A program made the position numbers and the translations under genes. The notes under the pieces were generated by a model. The model saw nothing but the letters and a program-made list of their open reading frames with translations. It made no database searches and had not been told where the DNA came from. A stretch of 64,000 nt of DNA, from positions 6,138,001-6,202,000 of the forward strand of contig OX597828.1 in assembly GCA_951406725.2 (NCBI GenBank). The letters run 5' to 3'. The stretch is from Octopus vulgaris. Lineage: Eukaryota. Below, piece after piece: positions 3,137-59,865 of this stretch (the stretch's first letter is position 1; each line of letters starts with the position of its first letter).

Positions 3137-3592
3137 TCAACGAGGAGTTTGCATATTAAGTTGTGTTTGGAATTTTTCAATAAAGAGATTATCCTTGTTA
3201 ATTCTCTCCTGTGTGGTGATCCCGTCTTTACATTGGTAGAAGGGGAATATATAGAATTTGGGGTTTAAGTCTTTAGCACATGAGTCTAAGTGGTCACTCA
3301 GTGGAATTTGTCGGTATTCCGGGAGATTTATTTGTTCTTTATGTACCGTTACTCGTTTACGTAACGGGAGACTCGTTTGTCCAACATAATTATGTTGGCA
3401 ACCAGCGCATGTGAGAACGTAGATAAGGTTCTCGGAGGAACAGGAGAAGTTAGTCTTGATTTTAAACTTCGTACCTTGTTTGAAGGTAAATTCAGAGCCT
3501 ACAAGTAGAAAGGGGCAGGTACCACAGTTTGAGCGTGCACATTTTTTTACTGTTGGGGGTGGATGTGGTGTGTGGAGTTTGGCATTTGTCAA
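3137..3592 (-). pseudogene. PLE GIY-YIG endonuclease domain (C-terminal fragment)
   Basis: KKCARSNCGTC linker and NLIYVLTCAGCQHNYVGQTSLPLRKRVTVH...SDH (GIY-YIG with CCHH residues), typical of PLE endonucleases. Confidence 0.9.
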
Positions 3593-3626
3593 GAGTTTTT
3601 TTAAAGATTTGTGTTGCCTTTTACAT

Positions 3627-3691
3627 TGGGACTGAACCCGTAACCATGTGGTTGGTAAGCAAGCTACTTACCACACAGCCACTCCTGCGCC
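3627..3691 (-). mobile_element. SINE family A head fragment
   Basis: Reverse complement of GGCGCAGGAGTGGCTGTGTGGTAAGTAGCTTGCTTACCAACCACATGG. Confidence 0.8.
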
Positions 3692-4417: not shown

Positions 4418-4825
4418 GGCGCAGGAGTGGCTGGGTGGTAAGTAGCTTGCTAACCAACCACATGGTTCCGGGTTCAGTCCCACTGCGTGGCATCTTGGGC
4501 AAGTGTCTTCTGCTATAGCCCCGCGCCGACCAATACCTTGTGAGTGGATTTAGTAGACGGAAACTGAAAGAAGCCTGTCGTATATATGTATATATGTATA
4601 TATATATGTGTGTCTCTGTGTTTGTCCCCCTAGCATTGCTTGACAACCGATGCTGGTGTGTTTACGTCCCCGTCACTTAGCGGTTTGGCAAAAGAGGCCG
4701 ATAGAATAAGTACTGGGCTTACAAAGAATAAGTCCCGGGGTCGATTTGCTCGACTAAAGGCGATGCTCCAGCATGGCCGCAGTCAAATGACTGAAACAAG
4801 TAAAAGAGTAAAGGGTAAAAGAGTA
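4418..4825 (+). mobile_element. tRNA-derived SINE family A (CORE-like), full length
   Basis: A box TGGCTGGGTGG, B box GGTTCAGTCCC, CORE-like CTTGGGCAAGTGTCTT, internal TA/TG tract, tail GCTCCAGCATGGCCGCAGTC...(AAAGAGT)n. Confidence 0.85.
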
Positions 4826-5309: not shown

Positions 5310-5423
5310 TTGTAGGCGCGCTGACAAATGATAAGCAGTGGTAATTCGTATTTTACACGCTTGCATCATTCTTCTAATTCCAATTCCAAGAAAGCACCCT
5401 TCATATAAACAACCTAATTGAAT
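5310..5423 (+). repeat. ~115-bp dispersed repeat, copy 2
   Basis: Aligns to 1262-1375. Confidence 0.85.
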
Positions 5424-8659: not shown

Positions 8660-9060
8660 AAGCAGGATTGGCAGTATGTTAAGTAGCTTGCTTACCAACC
8701 ACATGGTTCCGAGTTCAGTTTCACTGCGTGGCACCTTGGGCCAGTATCTTCTACTATAGCCTCGAGCTCACCAAAGCCTTGTGAGTGGATATGGTAGACG
8801 AAAACTGAAAGTAGCCCGTCGTATATATGTATGTGTATATGTTTGTGTGTCTGTGTTTGTCCCCCCAACTTTGCTTGACTACCGATGCTGGTGTATTTAC
8901 GTCGCCGTAACTTAGCGGTTCGGCAAAAGAGACCGATAGAATAAGTACTAGGCATGCACAGAATAAGACCTGGGCTCGATTTGCTCGATTAAAGGCGGTA
9001 CTCCAGCATGGCCGTAGTCAAATAACTGAAACAAGTAAAAGAGTAAAAGAGTAAAGAGTA
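8660..9060 (+). mobile_element. SINE family A
   Basis: Colinear with 4418-4825, including the (AAAGAGT)n tail. Confidence 0.85.
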
Positions 9061-9974: not shown

Positions 9975-12422
9975 GCACGCACATACACACACACTCACAT
10001 ATATTGTATATTTTCAATACGAAATATAATTTACTAACATTTCAACTACAATACTATCATATAATCTTTGCGTCTCAACCAATTTGAGACACGATGTTAC
10101 ATTTTTAACACTAAAGAATGAAAAGGATAGAATATATGGATATAAATGAAAATCTTTGAAACAATATTTGATACCAAAAAGAAAATAAAGGACTAGATAT
10201 AACACACATTCTTAATAATTGCAAACATGGCTCTTTTTAGAGGTATATGTGTCATTGACACATTCTTGAATGTCACATTAAATATTTTGCATTTTGTAGA
10301 AAGTATAATACTAAGAAAATAAATAAGGAATTAAGAAACACACCTTAAAAAGTTCAATGAAATTAGGGTGCTTAAATGTTTAGGTAAAATCAGGTGTAAA
10401 GGAAGGTAAATATAAATTAGCATACAGCATACGTATTGCAGAGAACAAACCCAGTATTCAAGCTACTGCTAGGTTGGCTAGAAGGCAGTATGTTTTACAT
10501 AAAACAGATGATTATCCCAACACTTTAATGAAATTTCACTGCAATACATTTTTGCGCTTCTTAATATCATAATCTTTTGTAATCTTAATTAAAACTTATG
10601 CGTATAATATACTTAATATGTTTATATATATATGTGTGTGTGTATGTGTGTGTGTATTTATGCACACACACACATATAAACAGGCATTCACACACACATC
10701 CTCAATCGTATACATGTATTTATATAAACATATATATGTTAAAACTTCAACATCACAGTAGAAAGCCACCAGAAAAATAATTTTCATGAGAACGAAGCTG
10801 TAAAAATATGGATACACAGAAAACCTCAAATACTTGAAATAGACTAAAAATAAGAAAATCCCCAACCAAAACGCAAGAGCAGATGTTAAATTCTGATACA
10901 ATTCGCCATACAACCGATCAGTAAAATTTCAACATCCCGTTGTCACACTTTTTGTCACACTTTTCATGCAAATTTACACGTGTATGTTTAATAGTCATCC
11001 GTTAGTCTGATTTGTATATACAAACCACGGTTAGTCCTGAGAATGCTCTACTCTATGAAGGCAGCAGTAAGAAGGAAGAAATATCTTATGCAGTGAGTGT
11101 ATTAGCATGCTTACATTTGCAAATTATTTTCAAAGGTTTTTTTTTTAAATGTGGAGCTAATTTTTATATTAAGCGCAAGATGTTGAAATTAAAAGAAATC
11201 TTAACTAGCATTGTAGGAAGTAAATCAATTATAGTTGAAAACCAACTCATTAAGTTATTAAGGATGTTTAATAGAAACGACAATAAGGTCTTTTATTCTC
11301 GTTAAAACTTAGCCACTACTGAAGATACACAAAATGCAAGTATGCGAGGACGCTTTTGCATCACTGAGCACGCAATCATAACTTCAGGGACTGATCTGTC
11401 TGACTAATTCATTAATAAGCTTTGTTGTAGTTCAACTGAATGAAGGCCCTGCATCGGAGCTACAAGAAATAACTTCAAACTGAAGTACTGCTTACTTACA
11501 CATTCAGTAGCCAAGCAGCATAAAAAAAGAAGCCTATTGAATTACATACAGCGAAATGGTGAAAGCAGTGATAATAAATGTTACTCGAAAACAATGCCAC
11601 GGTGGCTGATCGAATTCCGAAGCTTAATGATAGCAAAAAGAATTTCTTATATATAAGACATGATGCCTCCGTCTATGTCGGCGCAGGAGTGGCTGTGTGG
11701 TAAGTAGCTTGCTAACGCACATGCGCAATTAGTCAGCTGCTTCCTGTTCAGCCAGAGTGGACGCGAGTCAATCAGCTCTGTCCAATTAAAGAAAAAAGAC
11801 CAAAAACGGAAAGTTGTCGAGGTAAGTGATTTTGTTTATTGTGAGTTGGGCATAATTTATTGCGTGCCAATTATTATTTCAGTAGGTTGTGTCCAACTCT
11901 GAGAGAATTTCGCCTGCTCTCGGCGGCTGCCGTTTTTGTGTTCATTGAAAAAAAAAAAGAAAAGAAAAAACAGTGGAGGGGCGTATCCTCAGAATTCAAT
12001 ACAGTTACTGTTAAAATTACCGTTGGCGGTAGCCAGTGCTGTGTTTGGGCTTGTTGAATTTATTCCCTTGTCAGAGTACTTCGCAAGAAAATTATAAAAA
12101 TAAGCCACTATTGGATTACCTTTCGGACCCATTTTTGTGGAGGTTGTGTTGCAGTTGCGGCGTTCCAGGTTCAACCCAGGCCGGGAGTACCGCAAGGCCA
12201 GAATATTTTTGCTGTGTTTTTTCTGTTTATTAACTTTCTTTTGAACTTCATTTAACCCCCCCCCTTTTGGTTTTTTTCTTTATTGCGACTTTCCGTTAAT
12301 TTCTTCCCTTCTGTTGTGCTTTCTCCTTTTTGTGTTTTCAAAAATCTATTCAAATTTTATTTGGACTTTTGAACTTTTTCTTCCTGCTTTTGAGTCTAAT
12401 TTGAATATATTTTTAAAAAAAC

Positions 12423-13682
12423 ATGGCAATGAAAAATAACAAAATTTTGGAGTGGGAAATAATACCACCTAAAAAGTGGTTAAAAGACCGTGAAGATAGG
12501 ACGGTGGTGTTGAGAACCTACTCCAAGGCACTTGACACCATCGCCCTATTCGAAAAGACGGCAATTGAAAAGGAGTTGGAAGAGTATTTGCCAACAATTA
12601 AATTCATTTCCAGGGGTGTCAAATATGCAACGGTGTGGTTGCTATTTGACACCCCTGAAAGGCTTGCAAATTTGCTAGCAAACCCTTGGAGGGTAAGGAA
12701 ATCTTATTCCTGCCCACGTACAAAAAAAAGAAATTGATGAAAGCTTGGATCTGCGGACTGCCACCCGACATAGAACCCGAGTGGATAGAGGAGACTATCC
12801 GCCGGGGTCTGGGTGGCAGCGAAACTAAGCTCCTTAATGTAAAATTTCTTCCTGCGGCTGCTTGGGTTTGGTCAAAAGCAATTTTGACCCTGTGGACCCA
12901 ATCAGCCAATCTGGTTCTTCCAGATTTTTGAAAATGGCCGGGTGCAGGTACCCGGTGATGCTTGAGGGTCGCCCCTCTAAGTGTCATCGGTGCTTGGAGT
13001 CCGGCCACATAAAGAAGAACTGTCCCCGGGAACAAAATAGGATCCCGGAACAGTTAAGTAAAACCCCTCTAGAAGAGGGAATGATAACGGCCGAGAAAGC
13101 AGAGGACTCCTCAAACAGAGGCCGAAAGAGGAAGGTGAGCAACAATGGGTGCTCACCAAAGGATAATAGGGATGAGGAGAGGAAGCCGAATCTTCCAGCC
13201 ACGGAGGAGACGCACCCTCCCTCAGTTGAAAAGGAAAAAAAAAAAAGAAAAAGAGGAAGAAAATCGGGACATTACCGACTGTCAGTGTAGCACCGGAATG
13301 TCGCGGAACTACGTCGGTTGGGGTTGTGCCACCGACAAGAGAAGGAATACCATTGGCGGGAACTGTGCCGCCACCGAAAGAACTGAACGTATTGGTCCTC
13401 TTCTATAGAGGAGGAGAAATTGAAAAAGTGATGGAAGAGCATCACAAGGGAGCACCTTTAGCCTTCACACAGGACCCCGAATGGCCTCCGCAGGTAGCTG
13501 TGGAGGCCGTGACGTTCGACGTGACGCTTGGGCTAAAGGAGCTCAATGAAGACTATAACTTGGTCCCGGGCGACGCTGACTCGGAACTTGATTACGTTCT
13601 GAGGGAGGCGTGGTTGATGGTGGAGGGCGCGGGCACAAGCGACGATATGTATTATTGTAATGGACTTAAGTCCAAAAATTGA
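12423..13682 (+). pseudogene. Gag/ORF1-like nucleic-acid-binding protein with CX2CX4HX4C zinc knuckle (about 410 aa once frameshifts are joined)
   Basis: Overlapping ORFs 12423, 12686, 12862, 13145 and 13326 join into one reading: MAMKNNK...KAWICGLPPDIEPEWI...EGRPSKCHRCLESGHIKKNCP...basic/acidic tail. Confidence 0.75.
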
Positions 13683-14082
13683 AAATTGTAAGAGGATTAA
13701 TACCTCGTTTTGTATTAATAATGGACTGCTAAGTCCAAAAATTGGAAAAATTGTAAGAGGTTTAATACCTCGTTTTGTGTTTATCTTTTTAAAAAGAACA
13801 ATGTTTTAGAGAAGCGAAAGTCGGCGGGCGCTTTCTGTCTTCTCCCAGGACGATATGTAATTATTGAACTGTTAATATTAGTAATGGACTGCTAAGTCCA
13901 AAAATTGGAAAAATTGTAAGAGGTTTAATACCTCGTTTTGTGTTTATTTTTATTAATAATGGACTGCTAAATCCAAAAATTGGAAAAATTGTAAGAGGTT
14001 TAATACCTCGTTTTGTGTTTATCCTTAAAAAGAACAATGTTTTAGAGAAGCGATAGTCGGCGGGGGTGTTTTTCTTCTCCCA
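13641..14082 (+). repeat. Higher-order tandem repeat (A-A-B)x2 in the 3' UTR of the ORF1-only element
   Basis: Four ~62-nt units AATGGACTGCTAAGTCCAAAAATTGG...GAGGTTTAATACCTCG and two AAAAAGAACAATGTTTTAGAGAAGCG units; blocks start with GACGATATGTA at 13641 and 13849. Confidence 0.9.
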
Positions 14083-15009
14083 TCCTTATCATCTTTCATT
14101 CATTATCATTCACTTCATTAATGTCCTCATCCAGCCCGCAAAGCTAACTTAATCTGTGTACTGCCTTTATGGCAAATGTTTTGAAATAAAGTAGCTTGCT
14201 AACCAACCACATGGTTCCGGGTTCAGTCTCACTGCGTGACATCTTGGGTAAGTGTCTTCTGCTATAGCCCCGGGCCGACCAATGCCTTGTGAGTGGATTT
14301 GGTAGACGGAAACTGAAAGAAGCCTGTCGTATATATGTATATATATATATGTGTGTGTTTGTGTGTCTGTGTTTGTCCCTCTAGCATTGCTTGACAACAA
14401 ATGCTGGTGTGTTTACGTCCCCGTCACTTAGTGGTTCGGCAAAAGAGACCGATAGAATAAGTACTGGGCTTACAAAGACTAACTCCCGGGGTCGATTTGC
14501 TCGACTAAAGGCGGTGCTCCAGCATGGCCGCAGTCAAATGACTGAAACAAGTAAAAGAGTAAAAGGGAGTAAAGAGTATATTCTATATATATATAGAATA
14601 TACATATATTCTATTCAAGACACAAGTGACTCTGGCAATTACCAAGACAGACAGATTAGATAGAAACATAAGTAGGGTGATAGGCAGATTGGCAGGTAGA
14701 TTAGCAGGAAAATATGTAGGCAGGAAGGCAGGTAAGCATTCATGCAGGTAGGTAGGTTAGTAGGTAGGTAGGTAGGTAGGTAGGTTAGAAGATAGATAGG
14801 TTGGTACGTAGTAAGTATTTGAGGTGTGAAAATAGATAACCAAATACGTATTTAAGTGTACATGTATATGAAAGTATGTATGTATATATTTGATTGTATA
14901 TATAACACATAAAGCGAAAATATTGCGCAGCGAGTGTGTATGCGCATACCTAAATGTATATATATATATATATATATATACATATTCTGTTTGTCTGTCT
15001 GTCTCTCTC

Positions 15010-15806: not shown

Positions 15807-17910
15807 AATTGAGAAAGAGAGAAACAAATTTCATATCATTCAATCCATTTCAAATTGTCGAAATTCTCCGCAATATACGTAGATGTGTTCACATATATGA
15901 GACATGATAAAAATTCCTAAGAAATTACAAATATATATAAATATATTTATAAATATAGAAAAATCCATAAATATATAAAAGTTTATAAATATAGAAAAAA
16001 ATTATAAACATATAAACATATAAATAAGAATACATAGATGTACTTGCGAGGTTGAATGTCTGTACTAGAATCAATGGGGAGGGTAGATGAAAGAGTTAGT
16101 ATAAAATTATTTAAGAGATAATGGCTTACTCTATCCTTACCATGAGCCTAATAAGACTATTAAGTATATCCAAGCCTTATCAAATCATCCCCAAAGTGTC
16201 ATTAAGGGGATATTCAAAGATATGTCCATAAGAATATCTAACTTATCCGCAAACAAAAAGATCGACGATTTTGCTCCCCTTTATAATACAGCATTAAAAG
16301 ACAGTGGATGGAAGAGGAAAATATATCATATTAAGAACGCAATATTTAAAAATAAATTAGGCCAAAGTTTTCCAAATAATACGAACTTAAACATCAACAC
16401 ACCTCTCGTAAACAACCCCGCCTCCAAATATAGGAACCAACAATATACTACCAACAATAGAAGATGCTATAATTTATTTAATCATAATGACAGTATCTAT
16501 ACTTGGCAGGGCAGAATAGAAACAAATCGGGGAGGAGACGGGAAATTATATGGTTCACACCTTTTCCCTCCAGGTCAGAAACCTCCCTAAATTATATTTT
16601 AGAATTATCGATAGGAACTTCTCACTAGGACATAGATATCATTCCAAGTTTAATAGATGCTGCCTTAAATTATCGTACTCAACCATACCCAATCTAGGAT
16701 CTATAATCTTGGCCAACAATCGACTTAAATTTAGAATAACAGCATTAATAGAGATGGTTAAAATAGCTGACCTTAATATGAAGAATAATAAGAACCCTGA
16801 TATTGAAAATAAAAAGGCTAAACCTAGAAATAAAACATGTAATTGTCGTAATAGGGAGCTAGGTCCCTTAAAAGGATTCTGGTTAAAGAGATATGTCGTA
16901 TATAAAGTTGAGGTTTCAAACCTTAATGAACCTAAAAAGTTATACATAGGAAGTGCGACAGATTTCAAGATTAGATATAGGGCACACGCAAATTCATTTA
17001 TCAAACACGAAACAAAAACTTCAACCACACTAGCTACCCACATCAATAAATTAAAAATACGCAATAAAGAATTCAGTGTATATTGGTGTTTCATAAAGGA
17101 AACCACACCACATAATACACACACTAAAAATTGCAATTTATGCACGAAGGAGGCGATCCACATACGCCATACCAACAAAAAGTAATCTTGATAAGATATC
17201 TGATGTCATAATTACCTGTAGACATAAATATCTTTCAACTCTTAAATTCTTTCCTTAAAATAATTAGCCTGTAGGATTTTAATCTAATCACCCTTCATAT
17301 TTTGAATTCATCGTCAAATACTATTATATATAGCGTCGTAATGCATCTTCACATGTAACTTTAATTCTAATTCTAATTTCTCATGAAAAGTATGCTGCGA
17401 CAAAGCATTCGTTTTATAAAAATTCTCAAACCTTTCATGTCTCTTAAAGCTTTAACAACTCTTTGAATCTTTTAACTCTGATGAGAGACGTCTAGATAAT
17501 TGCTATGATTGGAGTTAGCTCGCACATACCAACCTATATCTTCCCGAAACGGCCATGAGACTCTGCACTCATTCAGGATTACTCTTAAATCATTTTACAC
17601 TAAATTTCTCATCTACCCTCCCCATTGATTCTAATATAGACATTCAACCTCGCAAGTACATCTATGTATTTATATTTATATATTTATATGCTTATACATT
17701 TTTATATATTCATAATGGTTTATATATTTATGAATTTTTATATATCTCTAACTCTTCGTATATTTATATATTTATAATATCTTATAAATGTTTACCATAT
17801 CTCATATATGTGAACGAATTTATGTATATTGTGGAGAATTTCGACAATTTGAAATGGATAGAATGAACATAAATACGGACCTTTGGAATTCGTTTCTGTC
17901 TTTCCTAATT
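15807..17910 (+). mobile_element. Penelope-like element (Naiad-like), 5'-truncated, bracketed by a ~310-bp inverted pseudo-LTR
   Basis: 15807-16117 is the diverged reverse complement of 17582-17910; coding remnant lies between; CTGATGA at 17478 and GAAACGGCC at ~17546. Confidence 0.85.
16130..17185 (+). pseudogene. PLE RT C-terminus/linker and GIY-YIG endonuclease (frameshifted)
   Basis: SNHPQSVIKGIFKDMSIRISNLS, FNRCCLKLSYSTIPN, TCNCRN..PLKG, VVYKVEV...LYIGSATDFKIRYRAH, CNLCTKE. Confidence 0.85.
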
Positions 17911-22367: not shown

Positions 22368-22752
22368 TAACCCTCCCGGCGCATGCATGTACACAGACAT
22401 TCACACTTATACAGGCATGATGAATAGATATGTCTATAAAGCAAAACAGGAATATATATCATACGTACATTGGTGCATAAGTGTACTTTAATATACATAC
22501 ACACACCTGCACACGGGTATGTGAGTGAATATCCATATATAAATATATAAGTATATACATATGCATTCATACACATATTCGTGCATACACATATACGCAT
22601 ACGCAGGAACATACCTGAATATATGTATTTTTACATACATACATGCACACATCCACAGGTGTACAGATACACAAACCTAAATATGTACATGCATAAATAA
22701 ACATGCACCCCCACACATACACACAAATACTCTGTGAGTACATGAGTGAACG

Positions 22753-22791
22753 TTAATAATAATAATAATAATAATGTTAATAATAATAATG

Positions 22792-22822
<31 letters not shown>

Positions 22823-22848
22823 TAATAATGATGATAATAATAATAATG

Positions 22849-22892
<44 letters not shown>

Positions 22893-22893
22893 G

Positions 22894-22972
<79 letters not shown>

Positions 22973-22998
22973 TAATAATGATGATAATAATAATAATG

Positions 22999-23050
<52 letters not shown>

Positions 23051-23112
23051 TAATAATAATAATAATAACGATAATAATAATAATGATAATAATGATGATA
23101 ATAATAATAATG

Positions 23113-23171
<59 letters not shown>

Positions 23172-23172
23172 G

Positions 23173-23254
<82 letters not shown>

Positions 23255-23280
23255 TAATAATGATGATAATAATAATAATG

Positions 23281-23320
<40 letters not shown>

Positions 23321-23382
23321 TAATAATAATAATAATAACGATAATAATAATAATGATAATAATGATGATAATAATAATAATG

Positions 23383-23477
<95 letters not shown>

Positions 23478-23478
23478 G

Positions 23479-23566
<88 letters not shown>

Positions 23567-23577
23567 TAATAATGATG

Positions 23578-23617
<40 letters not shown>

Positions 23618-23619
23618 TG

Positions 23620-23696
<77 letters not shown>

Positions 23697-23746
23697 GATA
23701 ACAATAATAATAATATAATAATAATAATTATAATAATAACGATAAC

Positions 23747-23799
<53 letters not shown>

Positions 23800-23801
23800 T
23801 A
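22753..23801. repeat. ~1.05-kb (AAT)n microsatellite with GAT/AAC variant triplets
   Basis: Read directly; source of the poly-I, poly-L and poly-N ORFs. Confidence 0.98.
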
Positions 23802-23829
23802 GTACATAAGCATGTCTGTGTGTGAGTGT

Positions 23830-23888
<59 letters not shown>

Positions 23889-24999
23889 TGTGCGCGTGTG
23901 TGTGTTTCAATATCTAAATAGAAGCTAGACAAAGGAACGAACAGAAATTTCACACAAAAGAAATCTGCATGCTCTTTCCTCGTTAGTTATCGTTCAGAAA
24001 TCATTACAGTTCATTACAATTTTAACGATAACATTTTGCAATTTTGATGGTATCTATAGCGAATAGCTGCTGGGAATAATGAACGAACGTTGATGACTGA
24101 CGAAAACAACTACGACACAAGTATAAAGGTAAACATAGAAATAATATTAACCATACATTATAGAAACAAAATAAAGGCCGCGGGGCTCTGAGAAACAACA
24201 AAACATGTATATAAGTAATACAATGGAAAATGTCAGAAAGGACTGGAAACAAAGCGGAGAAATGAATTGATAGAATGAAAAGGGAGAAAAACGAACCCAG
24301 TACTGATGTTAAGAAAAACGCCGGAGGTTATAAGAAGGGTGAATGAAGAATTCAGCAGTCAAATGGAAAAAGGACGTTGGAAAGAAAAAAATGAATGGTC
24401 ACAGGTCACATGGTAGAACCTAACAATGTTTCAGGTGTCAGATAGCGAGACATTTTCTTCGTTTCAACCAGAATTGCCTCCCCATCAAAAAGAGGAGCAG
24501 CGACGCTATACGTCAAAGCATTAATAAATCCCTGCACCGAGATCTCTTTATTCTTTTTTTTCTTAATCTCTGTCCTTCTGTCTTTCACCAACTTAACTCT
24601 GTCTCTTTCTGTGTCTATGCTCTCCACCATATTTTCTCTCTTTCCACTCTGCCACCTTCCACATGACCCGTGACCATTCCCATTTCCTTTTGTGTGTAAA
24701 TTTTCCGTTCTTTCCTATGTCATGCGTTTGTTTAATGTTTGAAACTTATTTCAGGCAAAGCTACACACCTATCTTTTCTGTCGCCCATATATAACTGTAA
24801 ATATTATATGTAACAATTTTTCGGTAGCCATGATAAAACTCCGAGTTGCGGATGTCGGGGTGGAAACCCACGCCGGCATCGCTTCAGTTATCGAGCCATC
24901 AAAAAAAAAATGCTATGAAAATAACTAGATCCCTCAATACTTTTATAGGAATACAGTTAGGGATATTTATATGTAAGATTACAACGAGGTAGAATGAGT

Positions 25000-27209: not shown

Positions 27210-27452
27210 TCATTTTGCTTTGCTTTGTTTTGTTTGCTCTCGGCCTGAAATTCTCCGCAAAAAGAATGTCTTTTGCGGGCGCCACCAATTGTGGTACCAC
27301 CAATTGTGAAACTCTCAGTCTTATCATTAGCAATTGTTTGATAACTCATGAAGAGTCCGGTTTTGCACTCAGTATACGTTATGTCGTGTGCTTATTTACG
27401 ATATATTTTGTCATATATTAAGTAATGGAACGCAACACACACCGAATTTGTA
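27210..27452 (+). repeat. Diverged direct repeat, copy 1 (copy 2 at 28301-28574)
   Basis: Shared CAAAAAGAAT, CACCAATTG, CTCTCAGT, CACTCAGTATACGTTATGTCGT and TTAAGTAATGGAA blocks. Confidence 0.8.
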
Positions 27453-28300: not shown

Positions 28301-28574
28301 TCATTTTGTTTTGTTTTGTCTTGTTGCTCTTGGCCATGAATTCTATGCAAAAAGAATTTTTTCGGATACCACCAATTGCGAAGCTCTCAGTTTTATCATT
28401 AAGGGTGCGAAAATGTGTATTAGCAATTGGTTGATGACTGATGAAGAATAAGGGACCTTCTGTGTTTGTCTCCCGTCCGGTTTTACACTCAGTATACGTT
28501 ATGTCGTATGTTTCTTTGCCAATCATATTTTTATTTATTAAGTAATGGAAAAACAAAGCCCACTGAATTTGTAT
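28301..28574 (+). repeat. Diverged direct repeat, copy 2
   Basis: Aligns with 27210-27452 with two short insertions. Confidence 0.8.
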
Positions 28575-47305: not shown

Positions 47306-48928
47306 GCGGCCAAAATGTTCGGAACGGCATTTTTTTCGTCAGGAAAGTAAGTATAAGTTTTAATCAAAGTCGTTTTATATTCTATAATTTTCACAGACAA
47401 TAAATACAATATTAATTGTTATTGTCTGAGATTTTGGTGTAATTTGAGTGGATAATACAAAAGTTATGGATGATTTAGTGATTTACTGCAAAACCCATGG
47501 CGGCCAAAATGATCAGAACGGTTGAAAAAATAACAAAATAATCAAAAATGAGAGAGAATACTGGAATTATTTAATATTTAGTGTGAAGCCCTTTAGCTTC
47601 AATCACACTCTGACATCTTTGACTGCATGAGGAAATTAAATCTTCAATTTCTTGCTGGGTGATCTTACTCCATTCTTCCTGAAGGGCATTCCATAATTGC
47701 TCGGTTGTTTTAGGATTTCTGGCTTTCGAACGTCCTCCTAGAACATTCCACACATTTTCAATAGGATTGAGATCTGGCTTTGAGCAGGCCATTCCATAAC
47801 AATAACCTTTTCAGCCTTGGGGCAGTTCATGACCACCTTAGCCTTGTGACATGGAGCATTGTCCTGCATGAATATGGGTGGTCGCTTAGTTGAATTTCTC
47901 AGCACAGGCAAGACATGATCTTTTACAAGTTGTTTATAAACTTCTGCATTTACCTTTCCATGTAATCGCACCAAAGAGACCACACCATCTGCAGATATCA
48001 TCCCCCAAACCATGACACTTCCTCCACCGAATTTAACACTAGTCTTAAGGCATTTAGGCGACAATTTTTCACCTACTTTTCTACGAACGTACCTTTTCCC
48101 ATCTGAGCCAAATAACATAAACTTAGATTCATCACTGAAATGCACCGTTTGCCATTTTTCTTGAGACCACAACACATGTTTGGTTACAAAGGTAAGACGA
48201 CACTTTTTATTCTTGGAGCTGATCAGTGGCTTCACTGCAGATGCTCTTGCTTGTAGGTCATGTTCAACTAAACGACGAGACACAGTTTTTCGAGATAAAG
48301 TTTTCTTCAATACAATGCTCATTTTCCGAGAAACAGCAGCAGCAGTTTTAAATCTGTCCTTTTTAACCAACTTTACCATAGCACGATCTTCTCTCTTGGG
48401 CGTTTTTCTTGGCCTACCTGTAAAATTTCTTGCTTCACACGAACCACAATCATCGTAGACCTTAAGAATACCGTGTACAACACTGTTTGACTTGTTAACA
48501 ATTTTTGCAATAGATCCAATACTTAAATTATCCTTCCTTCGAAGCTTAATAATCTGCTGACGAATTGGTAACGGAGTAAGTGGCATTATATTAACAAAGT
48601 ACACTGCAAATATTATTACTAATGTTTAGTAAACGAACCGTCACGTAAACAAATTCAAAACATTAGAGTTCGCCGGTTAAATATACTAAAACACGGAGTA
48701 AAAGCAACCGTTCTGATAATTTTGGCCGCCATGGGTTTTGCAGTAAATCACTAAATCATCCATAACTTTTGTATTATCCTCTCAAATTACACCTAAATCT
48801 CAGGCAATAACAAATAATATCGTATTTATTGTCTGTGAAAATTATAGAATATAAAATAACTTTGATAAAAAATTATATTTACTTTTCTGACGAAAACAAT
48901 GCCGTTCTGAACATTTTGGCCGCAACTG
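47301..48928 (-). mobile_element. Tc1-family DNA transposon, IR/DR type, full length (1628 bp) in (TA)n
   Basis: ~223-bp TIRs (47301-47524 and 48706-48928) starting (C/T)AGTTGCGGCCAAAATG, each with an inner direct repeat GCGGCCAAAATGATCAGAACGG; TA flanks. Confidence 0.95.
47571..48586 (-). pseudogene. Tc1 DD34E-type transposase with one frameshift near 47790
   Basis: HTH region with GRPRKT, FSDESKF, GGGSVMVWG, FMQDNAPCH, then PDLNPIENVW in another frame. Confidence 0.92.
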
Positions 48929-50837: not shown

Positions 50838-52002
<1,165 letters not shown>

Positions 52003-57902: not shown

Positions 57903-59865
57903 GCACATGTCAGAGTGGAAACGAATCTCCAACTATACCACGCTAATGGAGTACTGACCGCAAAATATATTAATTTCAACTGCGGTATTTCCCAGGTGAC
58001 TCACTTTCACCTCTAATTTTCTGCATAGCCCTAATACCCCTTACAAGTGAGCTTAACATAACAGGGTATAGATACAAAATTGGCGACAAGGAAATAAGTC
58101 ATCTATTTTATATGGATGACTTAAAACTCCACGTAAAAGACAATAATTAACTTGAAGGACTGTGAAAGCATTCAATGATGACATTGGGATGGAATTTGGT
58201 CTTGATAAAAGTGCCAAGGCCACTTTCCAGGAGGGGAATCTGAACCCCTCACATTCAGTGAAGCTGGATATTGAAACAGTCATAAAAGAACCCGAACAGG
58301 AACAAACTTACAAGTACCTCGGAATAAATTAAGGTTCTGGCATTCAGCAAAGAAGTATGAAAGAAAAGATCAAGAAGCAACGTTACAGGGGAGTTCGAAT
58401 AGACCTAAAATCCGAGTTAAATGCACGTAACAAGCTGTTAGTTATAAATTCAGTTGTTATTTACTGGAATTCCAGTTGTTATTTACAGTTTCAATGTATT
58501 AAACCGGTATATGAGGGAAATAAGGAAGGTTGACCTGAAAATCTGTAAGCTGCTGACTTGCAATAAGAGGCACCACGTAAAGACGGACGCAGATTATCTT
58601 TACCTACCCAGATCTCAAGGAGGTCGAGACTTGATCCAATTTGAAATCTCCTACAAAACCACCACAACTGGACTGGCAAAATATCCTGAAATATCTAACG
58701 ACTAGATGCTAAACCTCGTTGAAAATCATGAAAGACCTAAAAAGCTGCATTCTGTTATAAAGGAGAGCAAAATATTTTCAAGTGAGTTTATGCATAATAG
58801 GCAAGTTGAACAGCATGATGGAAGTGCAGCAAATGTAGCTGAATGCAAGGTTAAATCAATAGCAAAGCAAAATGCGTTTAGACAACTGGCCGATAGGTGG
58901 GAGCAAATCCTCTGCATTGCAAATATGTGGCCCATAGCAAACAAGCTGATGTAGACCAGAAGCACTCCCATCAGTGGCTACGGAGCTCAAGACTAAAGGC
59001 ATAGAGTGGAGGCTTTATCTTGGATGCCCAAGATCAGAGCTTTGTGGCCCGGAACTATCAAGCCAATGTAATGAAGAATGATGTAGACCTAAAGTGCCGA
59101 TACTGTAACGATGTGATAGAAACGGTGGACCACATAGTCTCTGCATGTAAGGCTTTAGTACTTGTAGAGAACAAATCAAGACATGACAGAGTTGGCCAAT
59201 ATCTACACTGTCGGCATTGTAAAATCAAAACAGCTGGCAAATGGTACAACCAACTTCCTGAGGCTGTAACTGAGGGAGAAAATGTAACTATTCCTTTGGA
59301 CTCCCTAGTATGTACAGACCGGACCATTAAGGCAAACAAACCAGATATTGTTGTGAAAGACCAAAACAATAAAGTCTGGTTATCAACTGACATGAGCATA
59401 CCCTGTGACCATAATATCTCCGCAAATAATTTGATATGCTCAGAAAATATAAAGATTTGCTCATCGAAATCGAAAAGATATGGCGTCTGATGACGGTTAC
59501 AAAACCAGTCATTATAGGAACATTTGGAATGATTAAAAAAGGAACTGGAAATTATTTAAGAATGATCCCTGGTCTACCATCTATGCAGAAAGAGCAAAAA
59601 AAGTGTCTTAACTGTTACGGCACACGTATTGGGAAGAGCATTGTCGCCGTTAATTTTCTTTCCCTTTTCCCCTTAAATTTCTTTGCTTATGTTTTTATTT
59701 TCTATTTTTTCTTTGTCTTTCTTCCCCGTTTTATCTATCACATGGACAATTTAGTGTGTTTATTTTAATAGCCTACAAATGTACACAGTGCGTTTCTCTG
59801 CACTAGATTTTAGGAAGACACTCAGCAAGAAATGTAAAGAGAATTGAAAGATGGTAATGAACATA
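57903..59865 (+). mobile_element. R4/Dong-clade non-LTR retrotransposon (RT plus restriction-like endonuclease), 5'-truncated, in (TAA)n
   Basis: GDSLSPLIFCIALIPL, SHLFYMDDLKL, YKYLG, LYLPRSQGGRDL, CRYC...ETVDHIVSAC, RHD, KPDIVV, KYKDL; (TAA)n on both sides matches known Dong targeting. Confidence 0.9.

Follow-up and report, generated by a model that had tools for sequence, protein, structure and literature searches.

Non-autonomous long interspersed elements (LINEs) that have kept their first open reading frame (ORF1) include HeT-A, HAL1 and Ag-Sponge, bipartite elements placed by PMC5786205 in the Jockey, L1 and CR1 clades, respectively, and experiments on TRE5-A, as described in PMC3159450, showed that its ORF2 protein acts in trans, that its ORF1 protein acts with cis preference and that a short 3' module is required. 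The hosts in the printed cases that we found are mammals, insects and Dictyostelium. For molluscs, no family with ORF1 only was found in the literature, including the accessible text of the octopus and mollusc repeat papers PMC9115989, PMC10294476 and PMC8967140 and the supplement of PMC13282606, a scope that leaves outside Repbase, Dfam and the Zenodo library of PMC13282606, which may contain the family. PMC13282606 does list a single insertion of 2,391 bp that was recently active and is classed as 'other retrotransposon'.

Here we describe a 2,472-nt insert (11717-14188) in a 64,000-nt stretch of Octopus vulgaris DNA (the window). The insert is probably an apparently full-length copy of a young, multi-copy octopus element of LINE type that encodes ORF1 only and likely borrows an endonuclease and a reverse transcriptase (RT) from an autonomous LINE, for which the L1/Tx1 group is the best candidate. 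The element is best read as an ORF1-retaining non-autonomous LINE, of the class of HAL1, HeT-A, Ag-Sponge and TRE5-A.2. A sequence-only reading of this DNA had proposed a half-LINE family comparable to HAL1 and had missed the members of the class in invertebrates and amoebae (HeT-A, Ag-Sponge and TRE5-A.2).

Insertion site and coding content

The insert is enclosed by an exact 15-nt repeat (coordinates in Table 1), and its flanks are the two halves of one abundant short interspersed element (SINE). When the insert and one copy of the repeat are removed, the host SINE (11680-14560) aligns over 394 nt with an uninterrupted SINE at 4418-4809 at 94.2% identity, and other copies lie in the window at 8662, 20564, 36779 and 41570, with a truncated one at 3691. 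The uninterrupted SINE at 4418 carries the 15-mer once and exactly, and the other window copies carry it once with 1-3 differences; since uninterrupted paralogous SINEs hold a single 15-mer, the duplication is a true target-site duplication (TSD). The ends of the insert are without terminal direct or inverted repeats (the best match between the 5' and 3' ends is 22 nt, E 0.033), and a second copy of the insert is absent from the window. The insertion point lies between two short motifs of the SINE head, found by eye against the consensus, which we take to be A-box-like (11690-11700) and B-box-like (14220-14228). The head is not called a tRNA by ARAGORN or Rfam. Retroposons derived from tRNA have been published from octopus (Ohshima and Okada 1994, as cited in PMC4758252). 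The insert and its exact duplication had been reported in the sequence-only reading at coordinates that we reproduced, and the empty paralogous SINEs of the window add proof to its proposal of a TSD; the SINE head as the insertion target had escaped it.

Reading from the ATG at 12423, a single gene of ORF1 type was found as four stop-free in-frame pieces of 79, 87, 103 and 135 codons, with three frameshifts between them, which are either post-insertion decay or long-read assembly errors. This agrees with the single frameshifted ORF of ~410 aa seen at the first inspection (the ORF of the family is likely ~412 aa), and the placing of the frameshifts at homopolymers stands for 12924 and ~13240, though not for 12659. 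The zinc knuckle that had been read in this ORF (CHRCLESGHIKKNC) is present at 12982-13023, and it matches Pfam zf-CCHC with an E of 0.004 and 17.6 bits, under the cut-off of 20.8. No RT or endonuclease family of Pfam was matched by the four ORF pieces scanned, and no YADD, KAFD, SDH or GDxN motif occurs in the six frames of the insert, so that the reported absence of both enzymes is borne out by two separate checks.

A phmmer search with the second ORF piece against 1.84 billion representatives gave one real relative, XP_029652367.1, an uncharacterised 281-aa protein of Octopus sinensis (LOC115225585, a locus with three RefSeq protein accessions); two other matches (E ~1e-4), both to repetitive proteins, one from an insect and one unnamed, were discarded as chance. 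The relative is collinear with the window ORF, with identities of 75% over piece 1, 76% over piece 2 and 51% over piece 3 (knuckle and linker), and it is continuous in one frame across the breaks at 12659 and 12924. It is not annotated as a transposon protein and looks like a decayed or sister copy, because its first knuckle Cys is replaced and the C-terminal domain is missing. When the first 205 residues of the relative were submitted to the ESM Atlas, clusters scoring 0.88-0.92 with zf-CCHC, RRM_1 and ZCCHC3 RBD1/RBD2 were returned, and the structural neighbours of these residues carry RRMs (best TM 0.55); a query with the knuckle only scored <0.9. On the basis of these look-alikes, an RRM-RRM-CCHC architecture is predicted for the ORF, which corresponds to the type I ORF1 defined by an RRM and a CCHC knuckle (PMC5203782, PMC4120745). 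No Pfam RRM match was obtained with the ORF pieces or with the relative.

Further comparisons of the protein were empty within their scope. Among proteins of 264-2000 aa, none of three candidates was homologous to the knuckle region; among those of 154-492 aa, XP_029652367.1 found only itself among 684 candidates; and a sequence search of the PDB gave a best E of 0.73, with no L1 ORF1p among the matches. The C-terminal domain, whose ~120 aa had already been said to match nothing recognisable, has no Pfam family and 0 homologs among 29 candidates of 74-237 aa, and its AlphaFold model (pLDDT 39) had no Foldseek match. The Foldseek lists of the AlphaFold models (pLDDT 36 and 39) were discarded as meaningless. 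Metagenome and viral contigs, scanned for exact patterns and at the protein level, gave no match, as expected for an animal repeat.

Copies of the element and competing explanations

Contigs from four of the 24 listed public sequencing runs (X1, X2, X5 and X12) were aligned at 85% likeness. Sampled 31-mers of the insert are present at a share of 20-53% in 20 of the 24 runs (9 studies, 4 organism labels), a share of 0.53 corresponding to ~98% identity, and every bin of the insert was covered by contigs in all four aligned runs. Ratios to single-copy depth were taken only at places with few contigs, as summed contig depth is not a copy number. Contigs over the unique left flank have a depth of 61.5 in X1 and 49.4 in X2, and single-locus contigs of X5 have depths of 8-11; at five places in the body of the insert, each with 1-5 contigs, the depth was 57-245 times that of a single copy in X2 and 38-113 times in X5, the ratios being 75 (X2) and 40 (X5) at 12050 in the leader and 57 (X2) and 38 (X5) at 13656 at the end of the ORF. 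The ratios of X1 (128-727; 0 at 13656) were kept out of the copy estimates and position 14129 out of the body range, since in both cases the depth is a sum over many overlapping contigs. A contig of X5 carries 178 nt of the leader with 0 differences at a depth of 431.7, ~48 times single copy (~9), and six long, closely matching contigs of X12 differ from the window copy at 19 of 1,245 nt (1.5%; two diverged contigs excluded). Many contigs at single-copy depth, 10-14% diverged, align within the ORF only, and therefore older relatives exist too. These data are most simply read as a young family whose copies number at least several tens. A single copy, which the sequence-only reading had held to be fatal to a half-LINE family, was not what we found, as the insert is multi-copy in all four runs, with leader and ORF-end depths of the same order.

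The reading frame was also followed in the other copies. An extra base at 12659 accounts for 28,305 of 61,904 depth units in X1 (46%), 8,037 of 29,247 in X2 (27%), 1,053 of 3,603 in X5 (29%) and 127 of 154 in X12 (82%), and one at 12924 for 18,197 of 19,324 in X1 (94%), 11,772 of 25,074 in X2 (47%), 1,785 of 2,180 in X5 (82%) and 80 of 80 in X12 (100%). These bases exactly restore the passage from frame 1 to 2 and from frame 2 to 3, so that on the question of whether the ORF is intact elsewhere, the frame is open at two of the three breaks, the same two that the O. sinensis protein reads through. A further extra base at 13656 holds 99-100% of the depth in X2, X5 and X12, X1 being without a counted contig there; therefore the frame in other copies likely ends near this position, giving an ORF of ~412 aa.

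Several smaller observations were made on the same contigs. At 13186, 13352 and 13442, the non-majority depth in X2 and X5 is about one single-copy depth (8.6, 9.9 and 8.7 in X5), as if one locus with the window alleles were present. No single-copy residue is seen in these two runs at 11905, 12050 and 13578, and for this reason some differences of the window copy may be assembly errors or newer changes. Relative to single copy, the leader has ~5-10 times the depth in X1 (organism A) that it has in X2 and X5, which is either contig fragmentation or a real difference in copy number between species or individuals. As to transcription, no listed run that contains the insert is recorded as RNA; X12, which was guessed to be RNA, is not enriched over the SINE and was not used as evidence.

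A number of points weigh against an ORF1-only family. No contig spans the whole element or covers the whole tail, summed depth does not count copies, and no partner LINE was found. An ORF2-bearing sister is conceivable, and one must exist as partner. Among the junctions listed, which are dominated by SINE contigs, there is no second insertion site or TSD (672 joints and 2,103 loose ends lie beyond these). The extra base is in the minority at 12659 in X2 and X5 (27% and 29%) and at 12924 in X2 (47%), partly because diverged relatives also align, and the base counts cover these two breaks, the one at ~13240 having been skipped in its poly-A run. Synonymous differences make up 8 of 20 ORF sites (among 40 of 162 rows) against 0.27 expected, which is not significant (p 0.14). 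The RRM call comes from the Atlas look-alikes, and the RRMs stay predicted because the AlphaFold models are of low confidence (pLDDT 36). In addition, PMC4120745 describes type I ORF1 also from the I, Jockey, R1, Tad1 and L2 clades, and therefore the clade is not fixed by it.

On the other side, the insert has a TSD with neither long terminal repeats (LTRs) nor terminal inverted repeats, it encodes a protein of ORF1 type (knuckle read in the sequence, RRM fold predicted), and the window copy is without an ORF2 for endonuclease and RT. Contig 16 of X12 (13505-13775), which joins 150 nt of the ORF end to 120 nt of tail, bears on whether this lack is general. Its depth is 75, against 80-160 for closely matching ORF contigs of X12, and the 120 nt that follow the ORF in it are AT-rich repeats with no ORF2 start, which makes it unlikely that the insert arose from an autonomous LINE by internal deletion and is now dead, with the depth coming from the ORF1 and untranslated regions (UTRs) of full-length elements and ORF2 lying within the tail. 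Nearly all depth at 13656, at a level near that of the leader, is held by a single contig (2,810 of 2,810 in X2 and 337 of 341 in X5), and contigs with unit-1 letters align at 14061-14072, suggesting a run-on into the terminal segment. Such a deletion would nevertheless fit with contig 16 being the only bridge between ORF end and tail and stopping at 13775, with the lack of any contig across 13775-14190, and with a summed depth that is far greater over the last ~100 nt than over the body.

A domesticated host gene that stems from an ORF1 (ZCCHC3-like) and whose processed retrocopies were spread by an L1/Tx1 enzyme would explain the Atlas clusters with ZCCHC3 RNA-binding domains (score 0.90) and the annotated O. 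sinensis locus with its three RefSeq protein accessions. We consider this origin improbable: the near-identical copies, of which there are tens, extend over the leader and have no poly(A) tail; XP_029652367.1 is at least 25% diverged, stops after 281 aa and no longer has the first knuckle Cys; and a conserved gene should have orthologs, while no further relative was present among the 1.84 billion representatives or the 684 candidates. The Gag-like character of a CCHC knuckle also brings to mind an LTR element, of whose gag the insert would be a fragment, or a DNA transposon that carried it as cargo. LTR elements make TSDs of 4-6 nt, far shorter than the 15 nt seen here; the test for an LTR retrotransposon or endogenous retrovirus found no long terminal repeats, the insert has no terminal direct or inverted repeats of any kind, and RRM-type look-alikes lie upstream of the knuckle, all of which makes this origin very hard to credit. 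Overall, we favour an ORF1-only LINE-type family as the source of the insert.

Organisation of the insert and its surroundings

Table 1. Features of the insert and of the SINE that receives it (window coordinates).
Feature	Position	Strand	Basis
5' part of host SINE head	11680..11716	+	97% identity with the head of the uninterrupted SINE at 4418
TSD, left copy, 15 nt	11702..11716	+	exact repeat; single in empty paralogous SINEs
5' leader, 706 nt to ATG	11717..12422	+	multi-copy depth in 4 runs; putative internal promoter
Single ORF1-type gene, broken in window copy	12423..13682	+	breaks at 12659, 12924, ~13240
Two predicted RRM-like domains	12423..12980	+	identity of the relative; ESM Atlas look-alikes
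One CX2CX4HX4C zinc knuckle	12982..13023	+	CHRCLESGHIKKNC read in the sequence
Charged low-complexity linker, K/R-rich runs	13024..13310	+	composition
Orphan C-terminal domain, ~115 aa, acidic	13311..13655	+	no family or homolog matched
Tail with two ~200-nt units in tandem, two ~70-nt repeats in each	13650..14082	+	87% identical units
3' terminal segment with small hairpin and AATAAA	14083..14190	+	sequence, folding
TSD, right copy	14189..14203	+	exact repeat
Remainder of host SINE	14204..14560	+	similarity to uninterrupted window SINEs

The leader, estimated at ~700 nt in the sequence-only reading, measures 706 nt. An imperfect inverted repeat at 12331-12423 (26-nt arms, 88%) ends at the ATG; it could affect translation of ORF1 or be a by-product of AT-richness. 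Six stretches of the insert, four of them in the tail, were folded against shuffles, and two of the six beat them, namely 13650-13790 (z -3.4) and the leader end at 12320-12430 (z -2.8). The 3' UTR had been called structured, a description that we do not uphold, as the tail is mostly a tandem duplication (13650-13847 and 13873-14082, 87% identical) and only one of its four stretches (13650-13790) beat shuffles. The second tail unit is probably rare among copies, since the depth in X12 is 4-40 over 13885-14070 compared to 198-1231 in the adjoining bins.

A terminal hairpin (TGCC-N5-GGCA, 14162-14174) and an AATAAA (14185-14190) are both present, as had been noted, and no poly(A) follows at the 3' end of the insert. 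The last two A's of the AATAAA are the first two of the right TSD, a 2-nt overlap, and the last 76-126 nt of the insert do not fold better than shuffled sequences do (z +0.34 and +0.18); the hairpin was rejected as a conserved structure at the level of a single sequence, its folding being at chance. Summed depth at 14129 is the highest of the insert and several times that of the body in all four runs, and this excess over the last 100 nt may reflect the end of the autonomous partner, 5'-truncated copies or an artefact of contig counts.

Elsewhere in the window, a 295-codon open frame on the minus strand (47738-48625) encodes a Tc1/mariner transposase (Pfam HTH_Tnp_Tc3_2, E 6.7e-16; DDE_3, E 3.2e-5) and is apparently a little-decayed DNA transposon copy. 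Penelope-like fragments lie at 3137-3667 (-) and 16105-17185 (+), with weak GIY-YIG matches (E 0.001 and 0.023, respectively), and a truncated member of the host SINE family (3624-3691) lies within or at the edge of the former. A C-terminal piece of a LINE ORF2 at 59005-59490 (+), RTE-like by eye (Pfam zf-RVT, E 5e-4), has no DNA similarity to the insert. The window also contains a ~1.2-kb AAT-type trinucleotide microsatellite at 22746-23986 (GC 12%) and three dispersed pairs of direct repeats (1262-1367 and 5310-5415; 27366-27430 and 28486-28550; 50880-50975 and 51771-51866; spacing 4,048, 1,120 and 891 nt), which are probably other repeat families or local duplications.

Proposed mobilisation, possible targeting and related systems

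Transcription of a master copy of the element would start at a promoter within the 706-nt leader and run as far as the AATAAA end, the ORF1 protein of this copy (with two predicted RRMs and one CCHC knuckle) would coat its own RNA in cis, and the ORF2 protein of a partner would recognise the 3' terminal segment. The bottom strand would then be nicked at a T/AAG site, which resembles the relaxed L1 endonuclease site, with priming on the two A's common to the RNA end and the target, and a second nick 15 nt away would yield the TSD. The long TSD, the AATAAA end and the ORF1 type make an L1/Tx1 element the likeliest partner, and so does the presence of recently active L1-Tx1 elements in O. vulgaris, for which PMC13282606 gives 13 recently active families with 421 insertions; a type I ORF1 is consistent with Tx1 elements of non-mammalian animals, as characterised in PMC5203782.

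The position of the insert raises the matter of targeting. The one known insertion site lies in the head of this SINE (1 of 1), such heads cover 0.8% of the window and the whole SINE family 3.2%, and SINEs make up 11.6% of O. vulgaris DNA according to PMC13282606; many Tx1 families described in PMC4494074 prefer another repeat as target. From a single site, the posterior for targeting is 0.15 to 0.93 under assumed priors of 2-10%. We put forward only tentatively, as a doubtful if conceivable proposal, that the element might be a hyperparasite that encodes ORF1 only, is mobilised by Tx1 and homes to a single site, located between the A and B boxes of a highly abundant SINE, whose RNA polymerase III promoter it disables, the SINE offering a near-unlimited safe harbour and the C-terminal domain, of no known family, perhaps serving in targeting, as the ORF1 protein of TRE5-A does via TFIIIB. 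If targeting is true, LINE, ORF1-only element and SINE would form a parasite system of three levels.

The known systems resemble the octopus element in different respects. HAL1 of mammals (PMC5753468, PMC5786205) is likewise a non-autonomous LINE derivative that has ORF1p only and keeps both ends. HAL1, however, derives from mammalian L1 and has a type II ORF1 (coiled coil, RRM and C-terminal domain; Transposase_22), whereas the octopus ORF has a CCHC knuckle and its host is a mollusc; neither the window ORF pieces nor the O. sinensis relative matched Transposase_22 when E values up to 1 were admitted. The octopus element is not HAL1 proper because the ORF1 type differs, and the earlier comparison with HAL1 consequently holds for the lifestyle and fails for the family, type I ORF1 not being that of mammalian L1. 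HeT-A (Jockey) and Ag-Sponge (CR1), given in PMC5786205, are, like the octopus element, ORF1-present non-autonomous LINEs of invertebrates; they belong to other clades, and HeT-A is telomeric while the octopus element is interstitial with a long TSD.

Target-preferring LINEs of the Tx1 clade are treated in PMC4494074. Tx1L, Keno, Kibi, Koshi and Tx1-Mar, along with SINEU, share with the octopus element insertion into another repeat and a TSD of ~15 nt (16 nt in SINEU-3), and its RRM/CCHC ORF1 is consistent with such LINEs. They differ in encoding ORF2, none of the targets named in the relevant sections of PMC4494074 is a tRNA-type SINE head, and the octopus element is known from one site. Targeting of tRNA by Dewa was not used as a comparison, as the matches to 'Dewa' in the papers checked were the author name Dewannieux.

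TRE5-A.2 of Dictyostelium, as reported in PMC3159450, has also kept ORF1 and deleted ORF2, is mobilised in trans via a short 3' module, and is the best experimental model for the mechanism proposed here; TRE5-A, unlike the octopus element, inserts ~50 bp upstream of tRNA genes via contact of ORF1 protein with TFIIIB, and no sequence similarity was found. Surveys based on RT miss ORF1-only families. The tens of near-identical copies make it possible to test for purifying selection on ORF1 without ORF2, as cis preference would entail, and for targeting of the SINE head. To the known systems the octopus element adds an independent and apparently young origin of the strategy of keeping ORF1 and dropping ORF2, with a type I ORF1 and in a mollusc host.

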